A DNA stretch of 64,000 bases from an uncultured Verrucomicrobiae bacterium (GCA_963707025.1 CAVPOM010000004.1:384001-448000), one strand, 5' to 3'. Positions 37,957 to 64,000 are shown, counted from the first letter of the stretch. A program made the numbers and translations. Notes: generated by a model from the letters alone, not told the origin.

Positions 37957-38910
37957 TTAACGGGGGGGGCCACCGGGCGGGCCGGATGAATTGGGCTTGA
38001 GCGACTGGCTCTGGTTGAACTGATCCATCACCTGGCGGATGGCGCGCGTATGTTCGGCGGTGCTGCCGCAGCAGGAACCGACAATCATCGCCCCCGCCGC
38101 CAGAACGCCGGGCAAGGCAATGACCATGTCGGCGGGAGATTGTTTGTAAACGGCTTTCCCGCGTTCCAGAACCGGCAGGCCGGCGTTGGGCTGCACCATC
38201 GCCGGCAGTTGGCAGTGCGCGCGATAAATCCCCGCCACCATGGCCGCGCCCGTCATGTCCATGCCTGTCCCGCAATTCAAGGCCGCAAAGTGCGCGCCTT
38301 TTTCCTCCGTGAATTCGGCGGCTCTTTCTGGCAACACTCCCATCATCGTCACGTAAAATGTCTTGTCCGCCGACAAATCATAAGCCAGCGAAGCAATGAT
38401 GCTGCGCGCTCCGGCAGCTTTGGCGGCGTCAATGGCCAGGCCCAGTTCCTCCAGCGAGGTCTGCGTTTCGATAATGATCGCATCCACGCCGCCCTCAACC
38501 AGCGCCGAAGCTTGTTCCTCCAGGGCAAGCTGTGCTTCCGCTTGTGAAAGCTCGCCGTACGGTTCCAAAATGGCGCCGACCGGCCCGATGTCGCCGAGCA
38601 CATATCCCGCGCGCCCGCCAAAGGCCTCCCGCGCGATGCGGGCAGCGGCTTGGTTGATGGCGCGCGCGTCCCTGGCCGCGCCATGCCGTTGCAGAGAAAT
38701 GCGGCTGCCGCCGAAAGTGTTGGTGATGAGGCAATCCGCCCCCGCCTCCGCATAGCGCCGCTGAATGGCCAGGACCCGTTCCGGCTGGGTGAGATTCCAA
38801 AGCTCGCCGCATTGGCCGCTCTCCAAGCCGGCCAGCATCAATTGCGTGCCCATCGCCCCATCGCAGACAAGCCGGCGCTCGCGCACCATTTCATGAAGCA
38901 GTTTTTGCAT
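37957..38910 (-). CDS. Homocysteine S-methyltransferase (stand-alone MetH Hcy-binding domain)
   Basis: DGAMGTQL, TNTFGG, GDIGP, IIIET, ALNC, QPNAGLP, VGSCCG zinc ligands. Confidence 0.92.
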   Translation of the reverse strand: MQKLLHEMVRERRLVCDGAMGTQLMLAGLESGQCGELWNLTQPERVLAIQRRYAEAGADCLITNTFGGSRISLQRHGAARDARAINQAAARIAREAFGGRAGYVLGDIGPVGAILEPYGELSQAEAQLALEEQASALVEGGVDAIIIETQTSLEELGLAIDAAKAAGARSIIASLAYDLSADKTFYVTMMGVLPERAAEFTEEKGAHFAALNCGTGMDMTGAAMVAGIYRAHCQLPAMVQPNAGLPVLERGKAVYKQSPADMVIALPGVLAAGAMIVGSCCGSTAEHTRAIRQVMDQFNQSQSLKPNSSGPPGGPPR

Positions 38911-39040
38911 GGTCAGCAACGCATTATTTCCCGCCAGTTGACCTCGCCGCAACAGGGAGGTCAGCCACAGAGTAGATAGGGTTTTGCCGCCCCCGGCACA
39001 AGCCCCAACTTCCCAAAATCCCCAAATCAGGCGGGCTGGC

Positions 39041-39245
39041 TGAGGGTACCTCGATTTGACGGACAGAGAATCGGGTGAACAATGAAAGGAAAAGCCCATG
39101 AAAGAAGCATCTGTCCCAGAGCGCCGGAAATTCGACCAAACATTCAAACGCGAAGCGGTTCTGAACTGGCTCCCTAGGGGCAAGTCCGCGACGGTGGTGG
39201 GGGAGGAGCTGGGCATCACCGCCAACCTGCTTTACGCTTGGAGAT
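39041..39245 (+). mobile_element. IS3-family left end and truncated OrfA
   Basis: TG-starting end TGAGGGTACCTCGATTTGACGGACA; RRKFDQTFKREAV...ELGITANLLYAWR HTH. Confidence 0.75.
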
Positions 39246-39458
39246 ATTCAGCCCGTTTATTTGCCGGAAATGGTTGTCAGTGTGGCAATTGTGGCTGATC
39301 CGAGAAATCATCCGATTTCCTTTGACTTGGCTCCCAAACTCTCGTAAATTCATTTGATGGAAGAGACGCGCAGTCGGTGGGCGCATTGATCTCGGCACCA
39401 TTGTTTATGCTGCGTCAGCATACGCCGATAATATGGTGTAATGGCGAGAGAAAAGAAT

Positions 39459-39689
39459 ATGAAAATCACTTTTGACAAAAGCGCGCGCGCTTTCGTCCTG
39501 GATGCTTTTGGCAAAACGGCCAAAGACGGGTTTGTTGTTGAAAAATCCAATACCGCACAAAAAGTTCTTACCCCAAGAGGCGAGGAGATCCCGGTGCAGG
39601 AATTTGCGGGTGTGCGGAAGGGTTCCGCCATATTCGTCAAATCTGACATTGTTTCATTGGTTGAAGCTGCTGAATCCATGAAGCCGTGA
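39459..39689 (+). CDS. Small hypothetical protein (low-GC cassette)
   Basis: 76 aa ORF with AG-rich upstream sequence, 10 bp before the next gene. Confidence 0.65.
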   Translation: MKITFDKSARAFVLDAFGKTAKDGFVVEKSNTAQKVLTPRGEEIPVQEFAGVRKGSAIFVKSDIVSLVEAAESMKP

Positions 39690-39699
39690 CCAGCCCCTG

Positions 39700-40518
39700 A
39701 TGAATATTTTGGAAAAGCTGAAGGCCGTTGGACTTTATTTTCCAAAACTCAAGAGTGTTTCCCTTTTCAAACTGTCCCTCAATATTGACAAGTCAATTCA
39801 TGTTGAGCGGTCAACAGTCACAATTAACCCTAAGAAGCTAAATGGTAAACAAAAGCGGGCGTTAATGGAAATCATTCGCGGCGAGGCTTTGGATTCTGCG
39901 GGTTTGATTTTGGATGAGGAAAAAGCGCCAACGGTTGAGCAGGTCATTCATGCTTTACAGGGCATCCATGAAGTAGAAGATAAATTTAAGCCTATCATTC
40001 CTTCTTCTGATATTCCCCTCCTAAAGGCCTGTGTCTATCTGCGCCTTAAATTTGAGCAAGGCGAATGTGTGGACGCACTGAAGGCGCAAATCATGCGTGT
40101 ATATGGGACGCGGGGCGGAAATTTTGCAAATTTGTGCTCTGCTGGATATTTGGAAACCTGGTTCCTGCCGCTTTACGATGAACTGCTGCGAGCCAATCCT
40201 GATAATCCCCTTTTGGCAAAGGCTAAATTTGTTTCGCTTTACAATAACATCTTGAGTGAATTGCCCTGGACCGAATTTGTATCTGCCCGTGCGAGTGCAG
40301 CCAAGATTACCGCCCACATCGTTGAAAAAATGAATCGCAATATTGCTAATGGCGTTCGCTTCTTAAACATTCACGGTCTTGGCGAGGGGAATGTGGAGAA
40401 AATACGTGGTCTGCTTTTTGATCTCCAAAGGCAGACTGGAGCTTTGGCTGTTCAGGTTGATAGGGACCGTTATCGGATTTTTGTTCGACTGGAAATTCCT
40501 CCTCAAATTACAAATTGA
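39700..40518 (+). CDS. Hypothetical protein (low-GC cassette), possible Smr-like C-terminus
   Basis: 272 aa ORF in AT-rich DNA; GVRFLNIHGLGEGNV resembles the Smr IHGxG strand-loop. Confidence 0.7.
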   Translation: MNILEKLKAVGLYFPKLKSVSLFKLSLNIDKSIHVERSTVTINPKKLNGKQKRALMEIIRGEALDSAGLILDEEKAPTVEQVIHALQGIHEVEDKFKPIIPSSDIPLLKACVYLRLKFEQGECVDALKAQIMRVYGTRGGNFANLCSAGYLETWFLPLYDELLRANPDNPLLAKAKFVSLYNNILSELPWTEFVSARASAAKITAHIVEKMNRNIANGVRFLNIHGLGEGNVEKIRGLLFDLQRQTGALAVQVDRDRYRIFVRLEIPPQITN

Positions 40519-40756
40519 CCTTTTATCTTAGGGCCAGCCGCCGTGGTTTCGGATATCCACTTGGCTACGACTGTATTTTGGAGTGGCCCAAGCCATTTCC
40601 CCACTAGATTTCCAATGGAAGATTTCATCAAGCATAGATTTTATGAATTGAGGCGGGAGGGCATAAAGCACCTTGCTTGCCAACTTTGTGAAAGACCTGA
40701 ATTTATCTCAAATTAGGCCACTACCCAAAGTTGCGTGCAGGAGCGGGTTGAGCCAT

Positions 40757-40777
40757 GATGTTCGAGGCCCGAACTAA
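40757..40777 (+). promoter_or_regulatory. Putative ROK-repressor operator
   Basis: GATGTTCGAGGCCCGAACTAA overlaps the -10 of a TTGCGT-17-CATGAT promoter; matches three other sites. Confidence 0.6.
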
Positions 40778-40794
40778 ATGACACCAGCAGTTGC

Positions 40795-42462
40795 ATGAGC
40801 GTCGAGTTGCATTTCAATCAACAGCACACGTGTGTTGCGCCCGGGCCGTCGCTGTTCGACTGCGCCGAAGCGCTCGGCATCAAGGTCCCCACTTCCTGCC
40901 GCAAGCAGGGCAAATGCAAGGAATGTCTGGTGGAAATCACCGAGGGAATGGAGTTCCTTTCGGGCAAAGGGCCGGAGGAAAAGCATCTCCGGGAAAACTT
41001 CCGTCTCTCCTGCCGCTGCCACATGGTCAAGGATTGTGGCGCGGTGCGATGCCATACCCTGCGGCGGGGCGACATGCGCATCGAACGCCACGCCCTGCAA
41101 CTTCCCACCACCGGCCAAAAGTTGCCGCTTGATCCCGCCGTCACCCGCGACGGTGAGCGCATTCTGCTGGACGGAATGGAAATTGATCGTGGCGGCGGAC
41201 CGATCCACGGGCTGGCCATGGACCTGGGAACCACCACCGTCGTCCTGCGCCTGCTCAACTTGGAAACCGGCGAAATCGTGGCGGACGCATCCTTCGAAAA
41301 TCCGCAACGCTTCGGCGGCTCCGATGTGATGTCGCGCATCCATTACGACACGGAGGACGGCAGCAAATTGCTGCAGCGCACTCTGGCCGGTTACATCACC
41401 CATGCCATCGAGGACTTTCCGGCGGACCCGAAATCCATCTACGAAGTGGTCGTCGCCGCCAATTCCACCATGCGCGATCTTTACTTTGGATTGAATGTCC
41501 ATTCCATCGGGCAAAGCCCCTATCAATCCATCACCGAGTTGGAAATGGGGCAAGGCCGGCGGACCACGACCAGTCTGGCCGCGCCGGCCGGGCGATTGTG
41601 GCTGCCGATTCATCCCAAGGCGCGCGTTTATGGGTTGCCCGTCATTAGCGGCCATGTCGGCGCCGACGCCGCCGCCTGCCTGCTGGCGGTGGATCTGGCC
41701 AACGAAGAACGGCTCGTGGCCCTCATGGACATCGGCACCAATACGGAACTGATCCTCGGCAACCGGCACAAAATCCTGGCGGCGTCCTGTCCCGCCGGCC
41801 CGGCCTTCGAAGGCGGCAAAATTGCCTGCGGCATGCCGGGTCTGCCGGGCGCCATTGAAAAAGTGGCGATTGACCCGGACGGCTCCCTGCGGGCACAAGT
41901 CATCGGGGGCGGCGCGGCGGAAGGGATTTGCGGTTCGGGGCTGATAGATCTCTTGAGCGAACTGCTCAAGACCGGGCGCATGAACTCGCTGGGGCGTTTT
42001 GAGGCCGGCGGGGAACCGTTTGTGCTGGAGGCCGGGAGCGAGCGACCGATTTGCCTGACGGAGGGCGACGTCAACGAACTGGCCCAGGCCAAGGGCGCCA
42101 ACGCGGCCGGGCTGCACGTTATGTTTGACAGATACGGCATTCGCTTCGACGACCTGGCCGTTTTCTACCTGGCGGGCGGTTTTGGCCGGCATCTCAGCCT
42201 GGCGGCCTCCAAACGCATCGGGCTGATACCCGACCTTGACGAGGCAAAAATCCTGCAAGTGGGCAACGCCTCCATTGAAGGCGCCAGTCTGGCGCTGCTG
42301 TCGCGCGCCAAACGCGCGGAGTTGGAGAAGCTGGTCAAACGTGTCACCCACTGCCGCCTGGAAACGCACCCTGACTTTTTCCATTACTTTGTGGAGGGGT
42401 GCCAGTTCAACCCCATCACCTCGCTGGCGGCGCCAAACCCGCCCGTCTTGAATGCGATTTGA
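40795..42462 (+). CDS. ATP-dependent reductive activator of corrinoid enzymes (RACE/RACo, ASKHA DUF4445) with N-terminal 2Fe-2S domain
   Basis: SCRKQGKCKEC...RLSC, MDLGTTT, NPQRFGGSDVMSRI, DIGTNTE, AGPAFEG, GICGSG, LAGGFG. Confidence 0.92.
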   Translation: MSVELHFNQQHTCVAPGPSLFDCAEALGIKVPTSCRKQGKCKECLVEITEGMEFLSGKGPEEKHLRENFRLSCRCHMVKDCGAVRCHTLRRGDMRIERHALQLPTTGQKLPLDPAVTRDGERILLDGMEIDRGGGPIHGLAMDLGTTTVVLRLLNLETGEIVADASFENPQRFGGSDVMSRIHYDTEDGSKLLQRTLAGYITHAIEDFPADPKSIYEVVVAANSTMRDLYFGLNVHSIGQSPYQSITELEMGQGRRTTTSLAAPAGRLWLPIHPKARVYGLPVISGHVGADAAACLLAVDLANEERLVALMDIGTNTELILGNRHKILAASCPAGPAFEGGKIACGMPGLPGAIEKVAIDPDGSLRAQVIGGGAAEGICGSGLIDLLSELLKTGRMNSLGRFEAGGEPFVLEAGSERPICLTEGDVNELAQAKGANAAGLHVMFDRYGIRFDDLAVFYLAGGFGRHLSLAASKRIGLIPDLDEAKILQVGNASIEGASLALLSRAKRAELEKLVKRVTHCRLETHPDFFHYFVEGCQFNPITSLAAPNPPVLNAI

Positions 42463-42463
42463 C

Positions 42464-43764
42464 ATGCTGGAACTGTTCGACACCCACCCGGACTGCCAGG
42501 TGCAGGAATCCGAATTCAAACGCCTGCTGGGCTATCCGCCGCGTCATAATCTGGAGGGACGCGCCCGCGAAATCGCGGAGGCGAGCCGGCAGTGGTATGT
42601 CCAATTCGGCCGGCCATGGATTTACGCGCGGCAGGCGGAAGGGCTGGAACTGTCCGGCAGCCAGATTAAAATCAACGGCGCCGCCTTCTCCTCCGCCCCG
42701 CTGCACGAGCAATTCCACACGGCGCAAGTTCACAGCGCGCTGCTGCTGGCCGTGAGCGCCGGCCCGCAATGCGAAGAAAAAGCGCGGGCCTTTTGGCAGG
42801 AAGGAAAGCCCGACGAATACTTCTTCATGGAAATGTTCGGCTCGGCCGTGGTGGAGCATTTGGTCGCGGTCGCCAACGGCCGCCTGTGCGCCTGGGCGGA
42901 CCAACAAGGGATGGTCGCGCTGCCCCATTACAGTCCGGGTTATTCGCGGTGGGATGTCCGCGAGCAAACCAAATTGTGGGACCTGATCCGCCCGGAGGCG
43001 GGCGGCAAATTTGCCGGCCAGCTCGAGGTGTTGGACACCGGCATGCTCCGGCCCAAAAAGTCGCTTTTGGCCGTCGTCGGCCTGACGCGCCACTTGGACA
43101 AGGTGCGGTCCTACGCCAGGCTGGTGCCGTGCGAAAACTGCTCCTTGTCCGGCTGCCAGGTACCCGGCGCGCGCCCTTCGAGCATTTTCCGCCGCAAATT
43201 GAAGAGGTCGTCCGGCTCCAGCCCGGCGGTGAGGAAGCTTTATCCCCGCCCAACGGCAAGGTCCTGGCGTTGAACCATCAGGCCAAGTATTCCATTAACG
43301 GCAAAGCCTTGCGCAAATGGTCGCAGGAGCGCCTGCAATTAAAGTCCTTGCCAGACGGCGCCGTTGAGGCGCGGTTCCGCTACGAAGGCACCACTTGCTC
43401 AAACCTGGGCCGCCTCCTTGAATTCGACTATCTGGTGCTGCTGGCGCCGGGACACGACCGCTATAAAATTGTGGCGGCCTCGTGCGTCCCTGCGCCCGGC
43501 GACACCGGCCACACCTGGCAATGCGAATATCTGGAGGACCCCGCCTCCTTCCTGCGCGCCATCGCTGAGGAAAGGCCGCTGCTGGGCCGCCCGCTCGACG
43601 ATGTCCTGGCCTGGGAGCGCGCCTGGCGCCCGTCGGGCTGCTACTGCGACGCCGAGCGGCGCTTCCATAAATGGGGCCTGGTCTTTGAGGTGATTCACTA
43701 CGCCCTGGTGGAGCGCGAGAAAGCCGCGGCCAATCCTCGACAGCCGGACCGGGTTTTGGAATAA
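42464..43764 (+). CDS. MetH reactivation-domain-like protein fused to an unknown Cys-rich domain, frameshift near 43160
   Basis: YSPGY..WDVREQ, MLRPKKSLLAVVG, CENC...C; removing two inserted bases gives CQYRRAPF and joins the downstream frame. Confidence 0.7.
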
Positions 43765-43778
43765 ATAATCCATCCTTT

Positions 43779-44105
43779 ATGACTCAATTGTGCAGCATTG
43801 ACACGACGGCGCTACAAAAACTGCCGCCCGCTTTCCCGGAAAAATCCGGCATTGGCGCGCATTACACCGACGCCTTCATCAAACCGATGAACACCAAACT
43901 GGCGGATGGCACGCGCGTTTCCTGCAAGCGCAAAGGCTTGAAGATAATCCTGGTGGTCGGCGCAAAAAAAGGCGAAGGGTTGATGCGCCGGCTGGAGGTG
44001 AGCCGGGACCCGGTGGTGATGTTAAAGGCCGCCTTGCAGGAGGCGGCCAAAGCCGCCGGCGTTGAGTTGCAAATCACCGGCAGCGAAATCCTGGTCGCCC
44101 CCTGA
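43779..44105 (+). CDS. Hypothetical protein in the corrinoid activator operon
   Basis: 108 aa ORF 14 bp after the previous stop, native-looking codon usage. Confidence 0.7.
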   Translation: MTQLCSIDTTALQKLPPAFPEKSGIGAHYTDAFIKPMNTKLADGTRVSCKRKGLKIILVVGAKKGEGLMRRLEVSRDPVVMLKAALQEAAKAAGVELQITGSEILVAP

Positions 44106-44333
44106 GCCGCAGCCATGGGGAAGAGAACCACGGATGAACGCGGATGGACACGGATTTACCGGCACAGAAGAGCGGGTTTTACGTTGTTTTACAAGAACGA
44201 GCCTTCAATTACTTTTGGCTGCATCGCCGGCGCGCAGCCACTGACCACATGATAGAGCGCCGGGATGTCTCCCACATTGCGCCAAGCCGGCATCTTTCAA
44301 ACCGCTCGCCGCGGCGTCCGAAAAATCCAGCCG

Positions 44334-45317
44334 TCAGGGAAACCTCGCCTCCATCTCATTTTTGACAGCGGCGGCGACTTCGGCGGGCGTGCCGGGACGC
44401 TCGGCTTCTTGGCCCCAGCGCAAGTGCGCCATGTAAGAGTCGGCCTGGATCAATCCTTGTTTCTGCGCCGAGAGATCAATGTGTTCGGCGAAACGGTTGT
44501 CGAGATTGAGCTTGATTTCGTCGAAGTCATCCCAGGCTTTGACTTGCGAGGGGATGTCCTGCCAGTAGAGCACTTGATATTTCGATTTGGCGCCGGGCGG
44601 ACGCGCCGCCCGCGCTTCTGCCCGTGCGGCCATGACCGGGGCCAGCGCTGCCATTTTGGTTTTATGGACTGGAGCGGCGCCTTTGCCGACAAAATACAGA
44701 AACAGATCCACCGCGCTGGAAGCGTCCGCCCCGTAGCCGTCGGCGCCGATTTCGTCCGCATACATCTGGCTGATGGGCGCGCCGCCGATGGCCATTTTGA
44801 TGTGGCCGAGGCCTTTCGCCTCAAAGCCGTCAATCACCACCTTCATATAAGTCATCGTCGTGGTCAGCAACGCGCTCATGCCGATGATGTCCGGCCGGTG
44901 CCGCTCGGCGGCGGCGAGGAATTTATCGAGGCTCTGATCCGCCCCGATGTCATGCACCTGGAAACCGGCGCCCTCGGCCATCATGCAAACCAGATTTTTT
45001 CCAATGTCATGCAAATCGCCGCGCACTGTTCCCATGAGCACCGTTCCGGCCGACGAACTGGCGGCGCCCCGGGCGGTCAGGAGCGGCTTGAGCACGGCCA
45101 TGCCGGCCTTCATGGCGCGGGCCGCGATGAGCACTTCGGGCACGTAAAGCACATTATATTTGAAATCCTCCCCCACCACGCTCATGCCGGCGATCAGCCC
45201 TTCGCTCAGGATTTCCTGCGCGCTCCGGCCCTCGGCCAACGCGTCGCGGGTCATTTGTTCGACCTGCACGGCCTTGCCCTCGTAAACGCACTGATTCATT
45301 AAAGCGTAGTCCGGCAT
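44334..45317 (-). CDS. Corrinoid (cobalamin-binding) protein with C-terminal Virulence_fact-like domain
   Basis: Cap domain YVPEVLIAARAMKAG; DLHDIGKN, SALL, GGAP; C-terminal YQVLYWQDIPSQV...RFAEHID. Confidence 0.92.
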   Translation of the reverse strand: MPDYALMNQCVYEGKAVQVEQMTRDALAEGRSAQEILSEGLIAGMSVVGEDFKYNVLYVPEVLIAARAMKAGMAVLKPLLTARGAASSSAGTVLMGTVRGDLHDIGKNLVCMMAEGAGFQVHDIGADQSLDKFLAAAERHRPDIIGMSALLTTTMTYMKVVIDGFEAKGLGHIKMAIGGAPISQMYADEIGADGYGADASSAVDLFLYFVGKGAAPVHKTKMAALAPVMAARAEARAARPPGAKSKYQVLYWQDIPSQVKAWDDFDEIKLNLDNRFAEHIDLSAQKQGLIQADSYMAHLRWGQEAERPGTPAEVAAAVKNEMEARFP

Positions 45318-45341
45318 GGGTGCTTGCTTTTCCGAAACGGG

Positions 45342-46388
45342 TCAGCGTTTGGAATTAAATTCCTCCAGAGCTTGCAGCATCGCCCGGATGTTCTCGCGCG
45401 GCATGCCCGGACTCGTGCCGCCGCCGACGGACAGCACGATCCCCTCGCCGCCGCTTTTTTCCAGAACGTCCAGGGTGGCCGCGCGCACTTCCCCGGGCGT
45501 GCCGCGCACGCCCACTTCCAGCGGATTCACATTTCCCATCAGGCACATGCGGCCGCCGACGCGCGCCTTCACTTCGGCGTAATCGGTTTGCTTTCCCCAG
45601 TTCAGCATGTTGAACCCGGCGTCCGGCAGATGATCCAGGCAGGCCCCGACCTCCGCGTCGTTGTGATAGAGCTTGACCCAGTCCTTGGGAAAGGCGTCGC
45701 AGATTTTTTTCAGGCGGGGATGGGCGAATTCCAGGTAGTGCTCCTCGTTGACGAAGCCAACAATGTCGTCGAGAATGAAAATGCCCTCCACCGTGCCGCC
45801 CATGGCTTTTTGCTGGGCCTTGAGCCAGTCAATAATGAGATTGGTGCAAAGGTCGAGCAGTTTGTGCGCCCACTCCGGTTTTTCCACCAGATCAATCATG
45901 AAATCGGTCGTGCTGCGGACGAAGCCGGCGGTACACATCGGGCCGCGCGAGGTGACCAGGGGCAGAATCTCACCGGTGTCCAGGATGCGCTGGCGCTGCA
46001 TGCGGATGCGGTGCAGGGTCATGGCCATGAAGGCGTCGTTTTCCACCTCGTATTCCGGGAACCTCTCGATGTCCTCAATATGAAAGAGGGTGTGGTATTC
46101 GCTGGGCGTGTTGTCCTGCCAGAATTTGATCTTGGCGCCCAGAGCCGACGGTTCCGCCGCCATGCCGTATTCCATCCACCAGGAAGGGACAAAGATGATG
46201 TCGGGGAATTCCCGGTGAATTTTCAAGTGCGACTGGAACCACAATTCCGGGTCGAGGTAGAAATCCATGTGCTTAAGGCCGAGATAACCGGGAATCCACG
46301 GACTGTCCACGATCAGGGCCATCGGCACCTTGTCCAATTTCTCCAGGCGCGAGGCCCGTTTAAATATGTCCCATTGTTCAGGTCTCAT
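45342..46388 (-). CDS. URO-D/MtaA-CmuA family corrinoid methyltransferase-like protein
   Basis: RGP, ILDD, LYHND, LMGNVNPL, GTPGEVRA, PRENIRA; 24 bp upstream of the corrinoid gene. Confidence 0.85.
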   Translation of the reverse strand: MRPEQWDIFKRASRLEKLDKVPMALIVDSPWIPGYLGLKHMDFYLDPELWFQSHLKIHREFPDIIFVPSWWMEYGMAAEPSALGAKIKFWQDNTPSEYHTLFHIEDIERFPEYEVENDAFMAMTLHRIRMQRQRILDTGEILPLVTSRGPMCTAGFVRSTTDFMIDLVEKPEWAHKLLDLCTNLIIDWLKAQQKAMGGTVEGIFILDDIVGFVNEEHYLEFAHPRLKKICDAFPKDWVKLYHNDAEVGACLDHLPDAGFNMLNWGKQTDYAEVKARVGGRMCLMGNVNPLEVGVRGTPGEVRAATLDVLEKSGGEGIVLSVGGGTSPGMPRENIRAMLQALEEFNSKR

Positions 46389-46476
46389 AGCAATTGACTG
46401 GCAAAGGCGTCGCTGTGACGCCGGCCATTTTCGCGCCTTCCGGCCCTCGCATTTCAAGCAGAAAGCGCCGGCTCGT

Positions 46477-46509
46477 AGGATTGTCCATTCAAATCATAAC
46501 ATTGTCCAT
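46477..46509. promoter_or_regulatory. Putative AraC-family tandem binding site
   Basis: AGGATTGTCCAT-N10-ACATTGTCCAT, 21 bp period; same layout at 57468-57500. Confidence 0.5.
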
Positions 46510-46560
46510 GCGTAGGAGAGAGAGGACAGGCCGCATGGAGAATGCTATGATGGAGTTTGC

Positions 46561-46640
46561 CTGGACACCAGCAAGAGTTACGCGGTGGAACCGGGAGCAT
46601 ACGAAATCCTGGCTGGCAGCGCATCCAACAAGCTGCGCGA
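46561..46640 (+). pseudogene. Remnant resembling the C-terminal Fn3-like segment of GH3 glycosidases
   Basis: Translates to LDTSKSYAVEPGAYEILAGSASNKL; no intact gene around it. Confidence 0.4.
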
Positions 46641-46675
46641 GGGATTGAAGCCCGTCGTGCAGCGAAACCTCTTGC

Positions 46676-47533
46676 TCATACCACAGCCACGGTGTTTTGC
46701 AGGACGCCGATTCCGGTGATTTCGATGCCGACCACATCCCCGACTTGCAAGGTGAAGGCGGCTGGGGGGACGATGCCGGTTCCCGTCAATAACACTGCCC
46801 CATGGGGAAATCTCTGGCAGCGAAAGAGGAAGGAGGCCAGTTCCTCGAAACGGCGTTTGATCTGGGCCACGGAAGTTTCGCCCGCGAAAACAGGCTGTCC
46901 GTCGCGGCGGATTTCCAGCCGAATGGTCCACTGTCGCGCCTCGGCTTCGGTCGCGCCAAGCGTAATCCACGGACCCAGGGCACAGGAACGGTGGTAGGTT
47001 TTGGCCTGGGGCAAATACAACAGATTCTCCCCTTCGATGTCCCGCGAACTCATGTCGTTGCCTATGGTGTAACCGGCGATCTTCCCCTTGGAGTTGAGCA
47101 CCAGGGCCAGTTCCGGTTCCGGCACATTCCAGCGGGCGTCGCTGCGGATGCCCACTTCATCGCCGGTGGCGGCCACTTTTTCGGCCAGCGATTTGAAGAA
47201 GATTTCCGGGCGTTCCGCCGAATAGACCTTGTCATAGGCGGAGGCGCTGAAATCGGATTCCTCCATGCGCGCGGTTTTGCTGCGGAGGTAAGTAACGCCG
47301 GCAGCCCAGACTTCCTGCCGTTCGACCGGCGCGCATAATTGAACCTCAGAAAGCGAAACGTGGGGAAGAGGCGCGTACTTTGCGAGAAGCGGCGGCAGAT
47401 CAGGATTGTCCAGTTCCAGCAATGGTTGCAGTTGGGTGACACCGGCTGGAGTCAAGTCGAGCACCGTCGCATCCTCGTTGACCAATCCCACCTTGATCTC
47501 CCCGGCTTGGTTTTTAAAGCGGCAGATTTTCAT
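46676..47533 (-). CDS. FAH-family protein, 2-keto-3-deoxy-pentonate dehydratase-like (XylX/KdaD type)
   Basis: EVWAAGVTYLRS..ARMEES, AERPEIFFK, VPEPEL, GNDMSSRDIEGEN, LLTGTGIVP. Confidence 0.8.
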   Translation of the reverse strand: MKICRFKNQAGEIKVGLVNEDATVLDLTPAGVTQLQPLLELDNPDLPPLLAKYAPLPHVSLSEVQLCAPVERQEVWAAGVTYLRSKTARMEESDFSASAYDKVYSAERPEIFFKSLAEKVAATGDEVGIRSDARWNVPEPELALVLNSKGKIAGYTIGNDMSSRDIEGENLLYLPQAKTYHRSCALGPWITLGATEAEARQWTIRLEIRRDGQPVFAGETSVAQIKRRFEELASFLFRCQRFPHGAVLLTGTGIVPPAAFTLQVGDVVGIEITGIGVLQNTVAVV

Positions 47534-47541
47534 AATTTTCT

Positions 47542-48819
47542 TCACGGCGCCATCGCCACGGGCGGACTGGCGGGATGCTTTTGTTTCGGCAGCAAAAAGG
47601 CAAGCCCGACGCACACCAGCATCCCCGCGCCCAGCGCGTCGAAGGCGATGGCCGTGCTGTTATATTGCCTGACCAACCAGCCCACCACATAAGGTCCGGC
47701 GAAGCCGCCCAGGTTGCCGAAAGCATTGACCAGTCCCGTGACCGATCCCATGACGTTGGCGGGCAGGGTCTCGCTGACAATGGCCCAAAAGGGAGCCATG
47801 CCGGCAAAGGGTCCCGGTATGGCCAGGCAGAGGAAAGCGTAGGAAACCCAAAAATGCCCGCGCAAGGCGACGCTGAGAATCAGGCTCAGGCCGCTCATGG
47901 CATACATGGCCGCAACGTGGGTTCGGCGCTCCTGGGTTTTGTCGGAGTGCCAGGAGTTGAGGATCATCACCAGGGCGGTCACGACGTAGGGAACGGCGAA
48001 CAGAATTCCGTACTGCGTGGCGCTGTAACCCCGGTCCTGCAGGCGGTCGGTGAAGAAGGTCATGCATCCGTACGCGGCGCAATTGTGCAGAAAATAAAGC
48101 GCAATCATGACGAAGATGGACGGCTCGAAGAATCTTTTCCAGGCCGGTGTTTTTCGCGGAGGCTCCACTGCGGCCGCTTCCTTTTGCAGCGTCGTTTCCA
48201 GAAAATTCCGTTCTTCCGGCGAAATCCAATGTGCCTCGGCGGGATGATCTCGAATGACCATCCACCAGAGTGGAAGCCAGAGAAACGGCAGGATGCCCTC
48301 GGCCATAAGCATGGTCTGCCAGCCATAAGCTCCGAGCAGCCATCCGGTCACCGGCGCCGAACCGGCCACGGCCAGGGGCTGGCAAAGCTGCCACGCGGCG
48401 TTGGCCCGCGCCCGTTCGGCGCGTGGAAACCAATTGGCCAGCAGGACGAGCGTCGCCGGAAAAACGGCGCTTTCCGCCACACCGAGCAAAAAGCGCATGG
48501 CCTCAAATTGCCGGAAGGTCCGGGCCAGCCCGCAGCCCATGGCGCAAAGGCCCCAACTGACCAGGCAGAGGCTGACGACCTTGCGAGCGCTCCAGCGCGA
48601 CGCGAGCCAGCCGCCGGGAATTTGCAGCAGGAGGTAACCGAAGAAGAATATGCCCGCCGCTTCTCCTTTCATGGCGGCATCCATGTGCAGGTCCCGCAGC
48701 ATGGTGGAGACGTGAGGATCAGGATCCAGGGAGAGGGAGATGTTGGTGCGGTCCACATAGGAGATGGTGTACATGATCAGCGCGACGGGAATGATGCGCA
48801 GCCAGCGTTGTTGCTTCAT
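47542..48819 (-). CDS. MFS transporter, anion:cation symporter (sugar-acid) family
   Basis: YVDRTNIS, FFFGYLLLQIPGG, RFLLGVAE, WFPRAERARA, about 12 TM segments. Confidence 0.9.
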   Translation of the reverse strand: MKQQRWLRIIPVALIMYTISYVDRTNISLSLDPDPHVSTMLRDLHMDAAMKGEAAGIFFFGYLLLQIPGGWLASRWSARKVVSLCLVSWGLCAMGCGLARTFRQFEAMRFLLGVAESAVFPATLVLLANWFPRAERARANAAWQLCQPLAVAGSAPVTGWLLGAYGWQTMLMAEGILPFLWLPLWWMVIRDHPAEAHWISPEERNFLETTLQKEAAAVEPPRKTPAWKRFFEPSIFVMIALYFLHNCAAYGCMTFFTDRLQDRGYSATQYGILFAVPYVVTALVMILNSWHSDKTQERRTHVAAMYAMSGLSLILSVALRGHFWVSYAFLCLAIPGPFAGMAPFWAIVSETLPANVMGSVTGLVNAFGNLGGFAGPYVVGWLVRQYNSTAIAFDALGAGMLVCVGLAFLLPKQKHPASPPVAMAP

Positions 48820-49181
48820 AGAGGCGCGAAGGCGATGCCAAACTTCCCTGTCAAATCCCCGCCAGGCCCGTCAAGGCCGTCAACTTGGCGGGCGGGCGGC
48901 GGACCGCGTTGTATTCGGCGCTGTAAATCAACCGGGGACCTGCGAAACGCAGGGTGATCGTGGCGGTGAGTAATGAGAGCCAGAGGATGAATTTCATGTT
49001 CATAATGTCGCGACGGATGGGAACGCGCTCCTTTTTACTCGATGGCACTTCCGACGCCAGCTTTTTTATACCGGGAGGATTTCCGGGCTGGCCCCGAGCG
49101 GTTTTTCGTCCCTACCTGAACCTATCTGAACAGTTACGGTTTTTCTTTGTCCCGCGGCGGCTTGCTGGTTCAATGGCTTTC

Positions 49182-51152
49182 ATGAGTTCCACTGACGAAG
49201 TTTTTGATTCGGCGGCGCCGGAGATTTATCAAATCAAAACCCAGGCACCCGGCCCGGCGGGGAGTTTGCCGATCACGGAGGAGATGCTGCTCAACCGGCC
49301 CAGCGGTGATCTTTTCGGTTTATCGCTCAATGTGGGAATGGGGTGGAACCCGGCGGAGGCGGGACGAAAGCAGTTTCTGATTTTGAGCACCCAAGGGGGG
49401 TTGCGCGCGCCGGATGGAAAACCGGTGGCGCTGGGCTATCATACCGGGCATTGGGAAATCGGGCTGCTGGTGCAGGCGGCGGCGGAAGAATTGACCCGGC
49501 GGCAGACCATTCCGTTCGCCGGGTTTTGCTCCGATCCGTGCGACGGGCGGACCCAAGGGACGACGGGTATGTTTGACAGTCTGCCCTATCGGAACGACGC
49601 GGCGGTGATATTCCGCCGGCTGGCGCGCTCCCTGCCGTTGCGGGCCGGCGTGCTCGGGGTGGCCACCTGCGACAAGGGATTGCCGGCCATGATGATGGCG
49701 GTGGCGGGCTTGCGCGATCTGCCCTGCGTGGTGGTTCCCGGCGGAGTGACGCTGCCCGCCACGGGGGGCGAGGACGCGGGGACGGTGCAGACGCTGGGGG
49801 TTCGTTTCGCGCACGGACTGGTTTCACTGGCGGAGGCCGCCGACCTGGGATGCCGCGCCTGCGGGTCGCCGGGAGGAGGCTGCCAATTCCTGGGCACGGC
49901 GGCGACTTCCCAAGTGGTGGGAGAAGCGCTGGGCCTTTGCCTGCCGCACGCCGCGCTCGCCCCTTCGGGCCAGCCGGTGTGGCTGGACCTGGCCCGGCGC
50001 TCGGCCCGCGCCCTGATTGGATTGGAAAAACGCGGGCTGACCATGCGGGAATTGATGACGGCGGAGAGCATAGAAAATGCGATGGTCGTTCACGCGGCCT
50101 TTGGCGGTTCCACCAATTTGTTGCTGCACATTCCCGCCATTGCCCATGCCGCCGGGTTGAAAGCTCCGGCGGTGGAGGATTGGATTTCGGTCAATCGCCG
50201 GACGCCCCGCCTGGTGAGCGTGCTGCCCAACGGCCCCGTCGCCCATCCGACGGTGCGCGTTTTTCTGGCGGGAGGAGTGCCGGAAGTGATGCTGCACTTG
50301 CGGCAACTGGGGTTGCTGCATTTGAACGCGCTGACGGTTTCCGGAAAGACGCTGGGCGAAAATCTCCAGTGGTGGGAAGGTTCCGAACGCCGCCGGCGGT
50401 TCAAGGAATTGTTGCGCCAGAAGGACGGAGTGGACGCCGGCGAGGTGATCTTCGCGCCGGAGCGGGCGCAAGCCAGGGGCCTGACCAGCACGATGGTTTT
50501 CCCGCGCGGCAACCTGGCCCCGGAAGGTTCGGTGGTCAAAAGCACAGCCATTGATCCAGCCGTGGTGGAGGCCGATGGCGTTTACCGCAAGGAGGGGCCG
50601 GCGCGGGTCTTTGTCAACGAGAAAGATGTCATGGCGGCCCTGAAACAAGGGCGCATCAAGGCGGGGGATGTGCTGGTCTTGACCGGCGTCGGGCCGCGGG
50701 GAACCGGCATGGAGGAAACCTACCAAGTGACCGCGGCGCTGAAACATCTTCCCTTCGGCCGGCAGGTGGCGCTGCTGACCGATGCGCGTTTTTCCGGGGT
50801 ATCCACCGGCGCGTGCATCGGCCACATCGGCCCGGAAGGGCTGGCAGGAGGGCCGATCGGGAAGGTTTTGGACGGGGATGTCATCAGAATTCTAATTGAC
50901 CGCCATAACCTGGAGGGAACGGTGGATTTGGTGGGAGAGGGAACGCGCCGCTTCACGCCGGAGGAAGGCGCCCGGGTCCTGGCCGGCCGCGCGCCGCGGC
51001 CTGACCTGGCGCCGCATGCCGCCCTGCCTGAGGACACACGGCTTTGGGCCGCCTTGCAATCCGCCGGCGGCGGGACTTGGGCCGGGTGTGTTTACGATGC
51101 CGACAAAATCATCGCCGCCCTCGAAGCGGGACGGGCCGCCGTGGCTGGCTGA
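49182..51152 (+). CDS. YjhG/YagF family D-xylonate dehydratase (IlvD/Edd superfamily)
   Basis: [50 protein letters not shown]. Confidence 0.9.
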
Positions 51153-51317
51153 GGGAGGCAAGGGCCGGGGGTTGCCGACCGGCCGCATCTCGGCACAACC
51201 GCCGTGGATACCAAGCCCCCGCTGACTTTCTCCCCGTTGCCAGGCGCATCTTGACACTGCTACCGGAGTCAGGCGCAAGAAGGCTACAGGAGTGCGCCCG
51301 TCCTCGGGGAATGGCGC

Positions 51318-51665
51318 TTAAATAAGACCTAAAACTTTCTTACCCAGCCTCTTACGACGCGGGGGATGCGGGATGGTTTCAAACAAGACCTGACGGCTCA
51401 AGCGTTGCATGGCTTTGATGGTGGCTTGCACCTCCCGCCACTCGGCAATGGCGTCATGGAGCCACTCATATTGTTCTTTGGAGAGAGCGACACTGACCGT
51501 TTTGCCTTTGACCTTGCGGGTCCACTGATAACAAGGGCCGCCTGCTCCGGGGCCGCGGTCTTGCACGTAGCCCTCGCTGATCCAGCCGGTTCTGGCCAGC
51601 CGGTCGCGTAATTGGGCGTATTGGGCCTGCCATTGGGCTGGCCGGGTTGTTTTGTGAGTCGGCAT
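51318..51665 (-). CDS. IS accessory protein (DUF6788-like)
   Basis: GPCYQWTRKVKGKTVSVALS motif; stop codon lies inside the left TIR. Confidence 0.75.
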   Translation of the reverse strand: MPTHKTTRPAQWQAQYAQLRDRLARTGWISEGYVQDRGPGAGGPCYQWTRKVKGKTVSVALSKEQYEWLHDAIAEWREVQATIKAMQRLSRQVLFETIPHPPRRKRLGKKVLGLI

Positions 51666-51690
51666 AAAGAAAAGAGTAGCAGACGTGTCA

Positions 51691-51716
51691 ATAAGGCGGT
51701 ATATATACCGCCTTAT
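51691..51716. promoter_or_regulatory. Perfect 26 bp palindrome between the divergent IS genes
   Basis: ATAAGGCGGTATATATACCGCCTTAT; its last two bases begin the transposase ATG. Confidence 0.8.
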
Positions 51717-53202
51717 GCCCGACACCCCCTTCTTCCCGGCCTGGCGGCCCCGTCTGGCGGCGGCGGGCCGCCGCTGTGCCCACAGCCTGGCGCGCCTCCG
51801 TCACGCCACCTTGAGTCAGATCGAGGACCGCCTGGCTCCCGCCTTGCCCACCGACCTCCTGCGAAAACCGGCCGCCGGCGACTACTCCCGCGAGCAGGTT
51901 TACACTCTGGTTCGCACCTGGTGGTGCTGGGTCTGGCCAGTCTTCCAAGCCAACACTTCCTGCCGCCACGTCGTCCTTCAGGTGCAGGCCCTGCTGGCCT
52001 TGGTCCAAGGCCCGGAACCGGAGCCGGACAGCAGCGCCTATTGCCAGGCCCGCGCCAAACTCCCCCTGGCCTTGCTGGAGCAAGCCTTCGCGGCCAGCGC
52101 CGACAGCGCCGAAAAGCGCGCCCCGGCCAGTACGCTGCTACAGGGCCGCCCGTTGAAAGCGGTCGATGGCAGCGGCACCCACCTGCCCGACACCCCGGCC
52201 AATCGGGCGGCCTTTCCCCCCAGCCAAAGCCTGCAGCCCGGCGGCGGCTTTCCCCACCTGCGCGTGGTGGCTCTGTTCTCCGCCGCCAGCGGCGCCCTTT
52301 TGGCCAAAGCCACCGGCAGCCTGCGCTCCTCCGAACTGGCTCTGTTTCTCCACGGCTTGCGCTCGGCTTTGCACCCCGGCGACATCCTCTTGGGCGACCG
52401 CGCCTATGGGGTTTATATTATCGCCGCCGTCCTCCAACTCCTGGGCGTGGATTTGCTCGCGCGGGTCTCCGTGCGCAACCGCAAGGTGGATTTCCGCCAG
52501 GCCCGCCAACGCCTGGGTCACTGGGACGCGCTCTTTACCTGGTCCAAACCCGGCCGGCCTTCGCCCCTGCTTTCGTTCCTGGAATGGCTCGGACTGCCGC
52601 CGCAGATCACGGTGCGGGTGCTGCGCGCGCGCCTGAGCCGGGCCGGCTTCCGCACCCGCCACCTGACCCTGGTCACGACCCTGTTGGATGCGGCGCTTTT
52701 TCCAGCGGAGGAACTGGCGGCCGCTTATGCCCGGCGCTGGCGCATGGAACTGTGCCTGGATGATCTCAAAACCACCCTGGGCATGCAGAGCCTGCATTGC
52801 CTCTGTCCCCGCATGGTGGAGAAAGAACTCCTGCTCTTCCTCACCGCCCATAATTTCCTGCGCTGGATCATGGCCGAAGCCGCGCAAAGCCAGAACGTGG
52901 ACTTGGATCGGATCAGTTTCAAAGGCAGCCTGGACGCCTTCCGGCAATGGACGCAGGCACTGGCACAACTCGGACACGCCCGGAACAAAGGGGGACGGCG
53001 CCGCCAATTATGGCAGCGGCTGCTCCGAAGGCTGGCGACCGATCTGGTGCCCAGGCGTCCGGGAAGAGCGGAGCCGCGCGCTGTCAAGAAACGATCCAAA
53101 TACCCCCATTTGAACAAATCGCGGCATCAATACCGCCAGCCCTGGAGCCGCAATAAACGCCGCCGTCTGGCCCGGGCCAAAAGAAAGGCTTCCCTTATTT
53201 AA
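51715..53202 (+). CDS. IS4 family DDE transposase
   Basis: SAYCQARAKL, AVDGS, GDRAY, YARRWRMELCLDDLK (YREK signature), EPRAVKKR. Confidence 0.92.
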   Translation: MPDTPFFPAWRPRLAAAGRRCAHSLARLRHATLSQIEDRLAPALPTDLLRKPAAGDYSREQVYTLVRTWWCWVWPVFQANTSCRHVVLQVQALLALVQGPEPEPDSSAYCQARAKLPLALLEQAFAASADSAEKRAPASTLLQGRPLKAVDGSGTHLPDTPANRAAFPPSQSLQPGGGFPHLRVVALFSAASGALLAKATGSLRSSELALFLHGLRSALHPGDILLGDRAYGVYIIAAVLQLLGVDLLARVSVRNRKVDFRQARQRLGHWDALFTWSKPGRPSPLLSFLEWLGLPPQITVRVLRARLSRAGFRTRHLTLVTTLLDAALFPAEELAAAYARRWRMELCLDDLKTTLGMQSLHCLCPRMVEKELLLFLTAHNFLRWIMAEAAQSQNVDLDRISFKGSLDAFRQWTQALAQLGHARNKGGRRRQLWQRLLRRLATDLVPRRPGRAEPRAVKKRSKYPHLNKSRHQYRQPWSRNKRRRLARAKRKASLI

Positions 53203-53211
53203 GCGCCATTC

Positions 53212-53312
53212 CCCGTCCTCGGGCGCAGCAGCGCGGGAAACACGGCGCGCCGGTAATCTTCCTGCGCACCCAAAAAATCCCCGGCTTGCTGCCGCCGGGG
53301 ACGGCCGCACTC
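53212..53312. repeat. REP pair interrupted by the IS4 element
   Basis: Reconstructed target GGAGTGCGCCCGTCCTCGGGCGCAGC pairs with the inverted GCTGCCGCCGGGGACGGCCGCACTCC near 53288-53313. Confidence 0.7.
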
Positions 53313-53437
53313 CGCCAGCAACAGTGTCAAGCTGCGCCCCCCGCTGCGCGGGGAGAAAGCAGATTGGCTTGCTCATCGGGTTATTTCTTGAAAAGAGAAG
53401 AGATAGCGCGCATCCATCCTTTTGCACCGCCTCATAT

Positions 53438-54518
53438 ATGACGCAAATGAAACTTGGCCTGGGTTTATATCGTCACGCCCTTACCCGCGATAATTTTCAG
53501 TTTGCGCGCCAGGCGGGGGCCACGCATATCGTCGCCCATCTGGTGGATTACTTTCACGGTGGCGGGCAGAACCCGCGCGACAATCAACCCACCGGCACCG
53601 AACAGGGCTGGGGGCGGGCGGGCGACCCCAATCGTCTCTGGTCTCTGGAGGAATTGGTGTCGTTGCGCCAGGAAATCCAGGCTGCCGGCCTGGAGCTGGA
53701 GGCCATCGAGAATTTTGACCCCGCTCACTGGCACGACATCCTGCTCGACGGCCCCAGGAAGAAGCAACAGATGGAGAACGTCAAAACGATTATCCGGCGT
53801 CTCGGCCAGGCCGGCATCCCGATCATGGGCTACAATTTCAGCATCGCCGGAGTTTGCGGGCGCACGAGCGCGCCTTACGCGCGGGGCGGCGCGGAATCCG
53901 TCGGCATGGAAGGCCCGCTCGACACGCCGATGCCCAAAGGGATGGTTTGGAACATGATTTATGACCCGGATGCGCCGGAGGGCTGCGTGCCCGCTGTTAG
54001 TCCGGAGGAACTTTGGCGGAGATTCAGCGAGTTTTTGCGTGAAATCACCCCCATCGCCGCCGAGTCCGGCGTCCGGCTGGCGGCGCATCCCGATGATCCC
54101 CCCTTGCCGACCCTGCGCGGCCAGCCCCGCCTGGTTTATCAGCCGCAGCATTATCAGCGTTTGCTGGACCTGGTGCCCAGCCCGGCCAACGCGCTGGAGT
54201 TCTGCCTTGGCTCGCTGGCGGAAATGACGGAGGGCGACCTTTACGAAACGGTGGATCGCTGCAGCCGGCAAGGGCGCATTGCCTACGTCCATTTCCGCAA
54301 TGTCCGCGGCAAAGCGCCGTTCTATCGGGAAACTTTTGTGGATGAGGGTGATGTGGATATGTTGCGGGTGCTGCGCATCCTGAAGAACAACCAATATGAC
54401 GGTGTGCTCATACCCGACCATACTCCGCAAATGCGGTGTGGCGCGCCCTGGCATGCCCGGCATGGCCTTCGCGCTGGGCTATATGCGCGCCGGCTTGCAG
54501 TGGATTGGCCGGGAATAG
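53438..54518 (+). CDS. uxuA: Mannonate dehydratase, +1 frameshift near 54458
   Basis: GYNF, AHPDDPP, HFRNV, DEGDVDM, PDHTP; removing one C gives GMAFALGYMRA to TAG at 54518. Confidence 0.85.
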
Positions 54519-54643
54519 ATTGGGCGCGCGCCATTTCCGGAATTTACCCGAAATCGCCAAAAATATGTTATTGATAACCAGCAGGTTACATCAATTCTAA
54601 TCCCCCTGAAGATATTTTTACTGGACATTTTGTGCGATCTCAT

Positions 54644-57442: not shown

Positions 57443-57467
57443 CGGCGGATGTGGCCCAGGCCATCAG

Positions 57468-60360: not shown

Positions 60361-60385
60361 GGTAGGATTGGCTGAAAGGTTCCAG

Positions 60386-63860: not shown

Positions 63861-64000
63861 ATGCCTGCCATCAAAAGCTCACATCCTGTTCCGCCGCCTG
63901 TTGGATCGTTCTGCCGCATGGCCTTGCCGGCGCTGCTCCTGTTGTTCCTGGCGTCGCCCAGTCTGGCGCAGCGGTTGACGCTGACGCCGCACAACAAGAC
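63861..64000 (+). CDS. 5' fragment of a secreted protein
   Basis: MPAIKS...LPALLLLFLASPSLA-QRLTLTP signal peptide, open to the window edge. Confidence 0.55.
   Translation, partial: MPAIKSSHPVPPPVGSFCRMALPALLLLFLASPSLAQRLTLTPHNK

Follow-up and report, generated by a model that had tools for sequence, protein, structure and literature searches.

MtgBCDE of Ruegeria pomeroyi and Phaeobacter inhibens is presented, in the available part of its description, as a glycine-betaine demethylase and split methionine synthase (PMC12478193). The aryl O-demethylase systems OdmABCD/VdmB of Acetobacterium dehalogenans, MtvABC of Moorella, and MtoABCD of Methermicoccus are described in the sections at hand as using a pterin acceptor (PMC10418091, PMC8630106). 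For O-methyl sugars, the accessible text of a 2025 paper on a P450 6-O-methyl-galactose demethylase stated that anaerobic demethylation of that sugar had not been elucidated (PMC12316285), and a study of GH67 loci listed glucuronate genes and, in the portion available, named no demethylase (PMC3071791). Here we analyzed a 64,000-nucleotide stretch of DNA from an uncultured Verrucomicrobiae bacterium (the window, positions 384001 to 448000 of contig C4 in a 6.96-Mb assembly that was 88% complete). The window carries a corrinoid methyl-transfer cassette built around a protein with a uroporphyrinogen decarboxylase (URO-D) fold, and the cassette lies near genes for the breakdown of xylan and the use of sugar acids.

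An earlier note, made from the sequence alone, had proposed that this cassette strips the methyl group from 4-O-methyl-glucuronate or another O-methyl sugar, and its author knew of no characterized corrinoid-based sugar demethylase. A full-text literature search, which left most subscription journals outside and in which supplementary or omics tables could still mention the genes, likewise returned none. The 4-O-methyl group of glucuronoxylan is among the most abundant methyl ethers of plant biomass, and no enzyme assigned to its fate was found.

Results

The cassette genes are as follows, with positions counted from the first nucleotide of the window and lengths in amino acids (aa).

45342..46388, minus strand, URO-D-fold methyltransferase of 348 aa, the proposed substrate methyltransferase (MT1) (PF01208, E 5e-39)
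44334..45317, minus strand, corrinoid (B12-binding) protein (PF02607, PF02310, and a C-terminal PF13769; GDLHDIGKN)
43779..44105, plus strand, conserved 108-aa protein (in 60/80 loci)
42452..43764, plus strand, MetH-type S-adenosylmethionine (AdoMet) reactivation domain plus Cys-rich C-terminal domain (homolog L005 has a fold match to 1J6R)
40795..42462, plus strand, RACo/ASKHA ATP-dependent corrinoid reductive activator (Fer2 [2Fe-2S], PF00111, PF17651, PF14574)
37957..38910, minus strand, stand-alone homocysteine S-methyltransferase of 317 aa (PF02574, E 4e-55)

Pfam, NCBIfam, and PDB profile comparisons placed every gene named in the earlier note where it had been reported. The inventory had overlooked the conserved 108-aa gene at 43779 to 44105. 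The likeness of one gene to the MetH reactivation domain was borne out by a fold match of an intact homolog to TM0269, and its two halves in the window are a single frameshifted gene (42452 to 43764).

The URO-D, corrinoid, RACo, reactivation, 108-aa, and homocysteine methyltransferase genes form one conserved cassette. This was seen in the loci of the best 80 of 586 confirmed URO-D relatives, which were 80 to 94% identical across several phyla and are labeled uroporphyrinogen decarboxylase in most databases; two of the loci came from one genome. In a scan of species genomes, the closest relatives were in records titled Verrucomicrobiota/Limisphaerales. Near-full-length loci (at least 18 kb) numbered 51, and 29 were shorter than 18 kb; contig ends truncate many of the 80 loci. 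A corrinoid gene was directly downstream of the URO-D gene in all 80 loci, with a median gap of about 32 nucleotides (24 in the window), and the D-x-H-x-x-G motif was found in 80 of 82 matching corrinoid open reading frames (ORFs). The pair of URO-D then corrinoid was the fixed part, and gene order was otherwise variable. The 108-aa gene was present in 60 loci, the reactivation gene in 55, RACo in 54, and the stand-alone homocysteine methyltransferase in 44, a pattern that agreed with the corrinoid methyl-transfer cassette originally proposed.

Additional genes in the 80 loci encoded a pterin-binding methyltransferase (27 loci), a MetF-like protein (28), an amidohydrolase (23), and PurU (7); in the 23 loci with the amidohydrolase gene (e.g., L051:14667-15983), it came next after the MetF-like and pterin methyltransferase genes. 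A homocysteine methyltransferase or a pterin methyltransferase was found in 57/80 loci, and both were found in 14. The homocysteine enzyme occurred in three forms: 39 orthologs, 5 proteins of an unrelated type (37 to 39% identity) encoded behind the corrinoid gene in five Ignavibacteria/Bacteroidota records, and a full MetH in locus L056. This recurrent link supported the suggestion in the earlier note that homocysteine is the methyl acceptor.

The window homocysteine methyltransferase had the three Zn-binding cysteines in ALNC and GSCCG motifs, and 42 of 47 related ORFs had both motifs; the others were fragments. Its gene is divergent from RACo, and a low-GC insert lies between the two (about 39035 to 40745, 44 to 51% GC). 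The insert holds an HTH_Tnp_1 remnant (39098 to 39259) and two orphan ORFs (76 and 272 aa) that had no Pfam or PADLOC match; it is missing from the peat contigs of two runs within one study. The RACo gene was the sole PF14574 match of the host genome, and its product scored above the cut-offs of PF14574, PF17651, and Fer2. It overlaps the reactivation gene by 11 nucleotides, and the 108-aa gene follows 14 nucleotides further on, on the same strand. The 108-aa protein was conserved (mean column identity of 82% in 55 sequences) and had no Pfam, Atlas, or PADLOC match; its structural model had a predicted local distance difference test score (pLDDT) of 77 and gave no clear fold match (best structural Z of 3.5).

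The reactivation protein had no Pfam sequence match, PF02965 included, and an Atlas match to PF02965 clusters. The intact homolog in L005, which is 85% identical to it, gave a model with a pLDDT of 82, and the N-terminal 208 residues of this model matched Thermotoga maritima TM0269 (1J6R) with a Z of 19.1 and a root mean square deviation of 2.3 over 194 aligned residues (Foldseek E 4e-8). An invariant C-x2-C-x4-C motif and four more cysteines were found in the family, and the Cys-rich C-terminal domain of about 150 residues showed weak RnfG-like similarity (Z 6.5). Relative to 4/4 close relatives, the window gene carries two additional bases (near 43159 and 43163), and 45 of 56 related ORFs span both halves.

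The URO-D-fold protein was not HemE, because its TIGR01464 score was 59 bits against a cut-off of 303 and the RQAGR motif was not aligned; a much stronger PF01208 match was found on contig C5. Its best PDB profile match was MtaA (4AY7, E 5e-30), and it was below the TIGR01463 (MtaA/CmuA) cut-off. In the 4AY7 alignment, H242-N243-D244 and G323 (alignment columns run one number higher) occupy the positions of the H-x-C motif and the distal C, which we take to be the zinc ligands of MtaA and MtbA. H-N-D...G was present in all aligned rows of clades 1 to 4 of the URO-D protein apart from one H-D-D row, and three outgroup rows had H-I-C...C. Because the MtaA motif is replaced throughout these clades, a thiol-activating role is unlikely, and we rejected an MtaA/MtbA-type thiol methyltransferase (MT2). 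The cassette already holds its own acceptor enzyme, the homocysteine methyltransferase. D28, E73, E79, R148, D207, D208, H242, and D244 were invariant in 49/49 clade 1 to 4 rows, a pattern that suggests a metal site with oxygen and nitrogen ligands and an arginine that may bind a carboxylate.

The fold and the gene adjacency expected of a corrinoid O-demethylase, a UroD-superfamily MT1 beside a corrinoid gene, were both present, and the protein is a putative MT1. No match to MtaB or MttB was found in the host genome, which leaves the URO-D protein as the cassette's sole candidate for the methyl-donor step. RACo was also found in 34/35 genomes with a match to the URO-D protein and in 18/116 genomes without one, in a sample of 151 genomes of the host's order that included the host. 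The four clades were defined on a quick tree, with SH-aLRT values of 86 for clade 1 (the window's clade), 100 for clades 2 and 4, and 93 for clade 3. Most of the clade 2 to 4 genes (L094 to L121) had no adjoining corrinoid gene, a GFO/IDH/MocA oxidoreductase gene was often next to those of clade 3, and a clade 4 query matched at least 7825 proteins at E 1e-60.

The absence of a pterin-binding module from the window, as originally described, was confirmed; no Pterin_bind gene was found there. The earlier note had also named a case that would undo its proposal, namely a split methionine synthase with a methyl-tetrahydrofolate module encoded elsewhere. A full MetH was found on contig C6 (a 1275-aa frame with PF02574, PF00809, and PF02310), and the remaining Pterin_bind matches of the host were a 281-aa frame (FolP by score) and a DHPS-like protein. 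Neither the pterin-binding methyltransferase nor the MetF-like partner of the cassette was found in the 88%-complete genome, and the pterin-binding MT2 of corrinoid O-demethylase systems was likewise not found there as a stand-alone module. Among relatives without these genes in the locus (50 genomes searched, of 53 such loci), only 6 had them elsewhere in the genome. A plain split methionine synthase of the MtgCDE type was rejected because a fused MetH was present and no separate methyl-tetrahydrofolate module was found. On the same grounds, the cassette is not the methionine synthase of the cell, and it does not depend on a folate module.

The neighborhood of the cassette includes the following genes, the last two lines of which rest on a genome search and a Pfam scan of L085. 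Glycoside hydrolase and carbohydrate esterase families are abbreviated GH and CE.

46676..47533, minus strand, FAH-family 2-keto-3-deoxy-pentonate (KDX) dehydratase, a variable neighbor (PF01557; PDB 2Q18, a KDA/KDX dehydratase, E 2e-50)
47542..48819, minus strand, MFS transporter of sugar-acid type, a variable neighbor (PF07690; best NCBIfam TIGR00893, under the cut-off)
49173..51152, plus strand, YagF/YjhG-type D-xylonate dehydratase (xylD), a variable neighbor (TIGR03432, 1125 bits, cut-off 808)
53447..54574, plus strand, divergent UxuA-family mannonate dehydratase (PF03786; the only such gene found in the genome)
54697..55908, plus strand, ROK-family regulator (PF00480 plus helix-turn-helix), with an AraC-type gene next (55987 to 56598)
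60444..62897, plus strand, GH30-like glucuronoxylanase candidate (PF02055/PF14587, E 2e-7; NF052681 XynC, E 2e-42, under the cut-off)
63861..64000, plus strand, start of an acetyl xylan esterase gene
about 65250 to 77300, past the end of the window, CE15-GDSL, GH115, GH8, GH10, MFS_2 transporter, and GH3 genes

Evidence tying the cassette to glucuronoxylan goes beyond what the earlier reader could see. Just past the end of the window, GH115, CE15, GH8, and GH10 genes are about 19 to 27 kb from the URO-D gene, and the GH115 gene starts 21 kb away. Among relatives, GH115, GH67, or CE15 was encoded within 10 kb in 27/80 loci (21 of the 51 near-full-length loci); GH115 or GH67 alone accounted for 11 loci, and the addition of GH10 and GH8 raised the count to 36. 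These loci spanned records titled Verrucomicrobiota, Bacteroidota, Ignavibacteriota, and KSB1, and in genome G042 the RACo half of the cassette adjoins GH67, with ROK and AraC-type regulator genes beside them as well. The background rate was 1.2% in random 21-kb windows of the host genome, and none of 28 loci with distant URO-D paralogs had GH115, GH67, or CE15 nearby.

Similar results were observed at the level of whole genomes. GH115 was found in 44 of 50 cassette genomes and in 21 of the 151 order genomes (GH67, 12/151). In the order sample, GH115 or GH67 was present in 14 of 17 genomes with clade 1 or clade 4, which were pooled post hoc, and in 10 of 134 without them. By clade, the counts were 5/7 for clade 1, 9/10 for clade 4, and 0/14 for genomes with only clades 2 or 3. 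When the comparison was confined to the 52 RACo-positive genomes, GH115 or GH67 was present in 13/16 with clade 1 or 4 versus 1/36 of the others. The P values computed for these counts overstate the association, as related genomes are not independent cases and the pooling of clade 4 was decided afterward. Two checks that the earlier note had called for, enrichment of URO-D/corrinoid loci near sugar genes (27/80 against 1.2%) and genomic co-occurrence with GH67 and GH115 (14/17 against 10/134), thus came out in its favor.

The xylonate dehydratase, KDX dehydratase, and MFS genes, which had been described beside the system, fared differently. An xylD gene at 70% identity or more was found in 7/80 loci and the FAH-family gene in 5/80, and these genes were rejected as core parts of the cassette because they were variable passengers across the 80 loci. 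An IS4-type insertion sequence (IS) lies between xylD and uxuA (51293 to 53227, with DDE_Tnp_1 at 51685 to 53202, DUF6788 at 51318 to 51725, and 34-nucleotide terminal inverted repeats); a repeat search of the region found only the IS ends and chance matches.

The UxuA of the earlier note was confirmed as a PF03786 family member but did not reach the canonical cut-offs (TIGR00695, 115 bits against 199.6; NF003027, 152 against 191), and neither did an intact homolog; the homolog in L006 matched PDB 3BAN at E 2e-38. Compared with L006, the 3' end of the window gene has one extra base near 54456 and is probably frameshifted. This uxuA variant was found in 10/80 loci, 28/50 cassette genomes, and 24/151 order genomes. 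Genes of its subfamily (the window gene and L122 to L141) are often beside GH115 or SDR genes, and the subfamily is a candidate for a dehydratase that eliminates methanol from 3-O-methyl-mannonate. The host encodes uxaC, with an adjoining SDR gene and a transporter gene, on contig C18.

In the region from 56618 to 63766, two genes with a prepilin-type N-methylation motif flank the GH30-like gene and a gene for an 859-aa protein that had no Pfam match. Genes similar to this prepilin-like pair were also found in other xylan loci of the order.

Discussion

We propose, with a probability of roughly one-half, that the URO-D enzyme methylates cob(I)alamin at the expense of 4-O-methyl-glucuronate, or of a methylated intermediate derived from it, as a form of methyl salvage beside glucuronoxylan breakdown. 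GH115 and GH67 enzymes release (4-O-methyl)glucuronate, RACo proteins reduce Co(II), AdoMet domains remethylate oxidized cobalamin, and PF02574 enzymes methylate homocysteine. In the proposed pathway, GH115, aided by CE15 and xylanases, would release 4-O-methyl-glucuronate, and the URO-D enzyme would bind this compound or a product of the uxaC/uxuB route that still carries the methyl group. Its Asp/His/Asp metal site would polarize the ether oxygen, and the methyl group would pass to cob(I)alamin on the corrinoid protein. The homocysteine methyltransferase, judged by the function of its family, would then transfer the methyl group to homocysteine, giving methionine. Oxidized cob(II)alamin would be brought back into the cycle by RACo and by the AdoMet reactivation protein, which may draw on a Cys-liganded electron carrier of its own. 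An optional folate branch (folate methyltransferase plus MetF), present in about one-third of relatives, would let surplus methyl groups be oxidized. Because the host has no stand-alone folate module and homocysteine is the only acceptor, flux is probably limited to the demand for methionine and AdoMet, and this cap probably lies below the methyl supply from growth on xylan.

In its fuller form, the proposal is that the URO-D protein is an oxygen-independent 4-O-methyl-glucuronate demethylase that feeds methionine without folate, that the H-N-D clades serve different O-methyl sugars, and that an AdoMet-redox protein and the 108-aa protein make up an undescribed reactivation unit. We hold this combination tentatively, at a little short of even odds.

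Several observations weigh against the proposal. No GH115, GH67, or CE15 gene was nearby in 53/80 loci or within 10 kb in any of the five clade 1 loci cut from the order sample, and part of the CE15 count reflects one block common to close relatives. Two of the seven clade 1 genomes of the order had neither GH115 nor GH67. Clade 4 was joined to clade 1 only after the GH115 list was known, is not its sister on the quick tree, and had an adjoining corrinoid gene in just 2 of 10 loci. The GH115 figure of 44/50 has no matched control from beyond the order, and a single genome supplied the 1.2% background. On general chemical grounds, alkyl ethers give up a methyl group less readily than aryl ethers do. 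Both the reactivation gene and uxuA are frameshifted in the host assembly; since frameshifts split several genes of this assembly, an interruption in any one gene may be an assembly error. Finally, 10 of the 24 GH115/GH67 genomes were without clades 1 and 4, and 9 of these were without RACo. The same uxuA variant was found in 7 of the 10. These counts indicate that the cassette is dispensable, and four genomes devoid of RACo (G032, G135, G107, and G061) carried the variant next to GH115 and/or CE15, so the xylan locus exists without the cassette. The idea in the earlier note that demethylation is needed to free the sugar was therefore not supported. Given xylan/uxuA loci that do without a corrinoid activator, and xylonate genes that vary from locus to locus, we regard methyl salvage as more probable than a demethylation that the sugar must undergo before it is used.

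These same genomes lend weight to the main rival, that the cassette captures methanol. Some fermenters release methanol from methylglucuronate. By atom mapping, the 4-O-methyl group would end up as part of the substituent that UxuA removes from C3 of mannonate, so loss of methanol could dispose of the methyl group without B12. Under this explanation the UxuA variant would eliminate methanol from 3-O-methyl-mannonate, and the URO-D protein would be a methanol:corrinoid methyltransferase of a type other than MtaB that recovers this methanol for methionine. The uxuA variant tracks GH115/GH67 (16/24 genomes versus 8/127 others in the order sample), it is beside GH115 or CE15 in the four genomes without RACo, in the close relative L006 it and the URO-D gene are directly divergent neighbors, and MtaB had no match in the host. 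However, just 28 of the 50 cassette genomes had the variant, and an enzyme that scavenges methanol should follow pectin genes no less than GH115. An anionic ligand larger than methanol is suggested by the invariant Arg148 and by numerous polar residues, and we know of no methanol-activating enzyme with a URO-D fold. On balance, we consider methanol capture unlikely.

The donor could instead be another O-methyl sugar or sugar acid of the plant wall, such as O-methyl xylose, O-methyl xylonate, or O-methyl rhamnose, with the GH115 link marking a hemicellulose lifestyle. The xylD, KDX dehydratase, and sugar-acid MFS genes adjoin the cassette here and in at most 9/80 loci, GH28-like genes were found in 12/80 and arabinose genes in 3/80, and clades 2 and 3 showed no GH115 link (0/14 genomes), from which it is probable that the H-N-D family has several substrates. 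For the window's enzyme, such a donor seems rather improbable, because physical linkage to glucuronoxylan enzymes occurs in several phyla, RACo-positive genomes with GH115/GH67 were nearly all genomes with clade 1 or 4, and the xylonate block is not a constant companion: the peat contigs join URO-D to xylD without the FAH and MFS genes, and L006 is without the block.

It is considerably less probable that the enzyme is an aryl O-demethylase for ferulate, vanillate, or syringate that CE15 and esterases release from lignin-carbohydrate complexes. OdmB and VdmB are UroD-superfamily phenolic O-demethylases in the available text (PMC10418091), and CE15 and the esterase BD-FAE were encoded in 19/80 and 3/80 loci, respectively. 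However, no ring-cleavage, UbiD, or other aromatic-catabolism family was found among 96 further neighbor proteins (of 330 clusters), and the window protein, at 348 aa, compares with the 47 to 48 kDa given for MtoB1/2 in the accessible part of its description (PMC8630106).

A split methionine synthase fed by folate, in which the URO-D gene is incidental and encodes no methyltransferase, is highly improbable: the corrinoid, homocysteine, and reactivation modules are three of the four MetH parts, and relatives have pterin methyltransferase (27/80) and MetF-like (28/80) genes that an 88%-complete assembly could lack, but the host keeps a full-length MetH, the cassette pterin enzyme was not found here or in 44/50 genomes without it in the locus, and the URO-D gene tracks RACo and was never absent beside the corrinoid gene, as the search was constructed.

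Other genes of related families were seen in the host. A second, unrelated URO-D-family gene (32695 to 33832, plus strand), with S-D-D, H-T-D-G, and C-S-C-H motifs and a frameshift near 33280, comes directly after a GH78 alpha-L-rhamnosidase gene (29239 to 32490); its product is a candidate O-methyl-rhamnose donor enzyme that might use the same corrinoid system. With its N-terminal half as the query, no match at E 1e-25 was found in the 150 other order genomes. On contig C16 (about 147100 to 149100; L001:9100-11082), there are a 3' remnant of a homocysteine methyltransferase gene, a gene for a second corrinoid protein, and a frameshifted MtaA-type URO-D gene that keeps H-I-C...G-C-E, with pectate lyase and GH28-like genes beside them. 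One P450 gene lies about 155 kb away from the cassette on contig C4.

Methyl transfer to a corrinoid from a sugar ether by an enzyme of the URO-D kind would be new. If the proposal is true, thousands of sequences would be re-annotated, and the decay of hemicellulose in soils and peat would be tied to B12 demand and methionine supply. The cassette names a single enzyme, carrier, and acceptor along with a few donors, which reduces the question to a single reconstitution.

The cassette resembles MtgBCDE, as far as the available text describes that system, in that one corrinoid carrier serves a substrate methyltransferase and a PF02574 homocysteine module, in its Ram/RACE activator, in not being confined to strict anaerobes, and, in about one-third of cassette relatives, in a pterin module and a MetF paralog (PMC12478193). 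In contrast to the Mtg substrate enzyme, which belongs to PF06253, the proposed substrate enzyme here has a URO-D fold. In addition, the host has no pterin module, keeps a full MetH, and carries the cassette in a xylan context, and the AdoMet reactivation and 108-aa proteins stand in for the DUF1638 protein of the published system (PMC12478193). The N-terminal 208 residues of this reactivation protein are like TM0269, the split MetH activation domain (1J6R), but unlike TM0269 the protein adds a Cys-x2-Cys-x4-Cys linker and a 150-residue Cys-rich domain.

With the Odm/Vdm, Mtv, and Mto systems, compared by their descriptions in the sections at hand, the cassette shares a corrinoid protein, an ATP-dependent activator, and a UroD-superfamily protein proposed, here as a putative MT1, to cleave an O-methyl ether, whereas its acceptor is homocysteine rather than a pterin, its neighbors are sugar genes, and its proposed donor is an alkyl ether (PMC10418091, PMC8630106). 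The MtaA/MtbA proteins (4AY7) share its fold, and the type 1 mlp clusters, as presented in the accessible text, share a corrinoid protein together with a Ram/RACE activator without a folate methylase; these clusters have two or three URO-D genes and the cassette has one, so it does not belong among them (PMC10418091). The P450 6-O-methyl-galactose demethylase is similar in that an O-methyl group is removed from a polysaccharide-derived sugar by an enzyme encoded in polysaccharide loci, but that enzyme, according to the available text, requires O2, ferredoxin, and a reductase (PMC12316285), whereas the cassette is proposed to act independently of oxygen.

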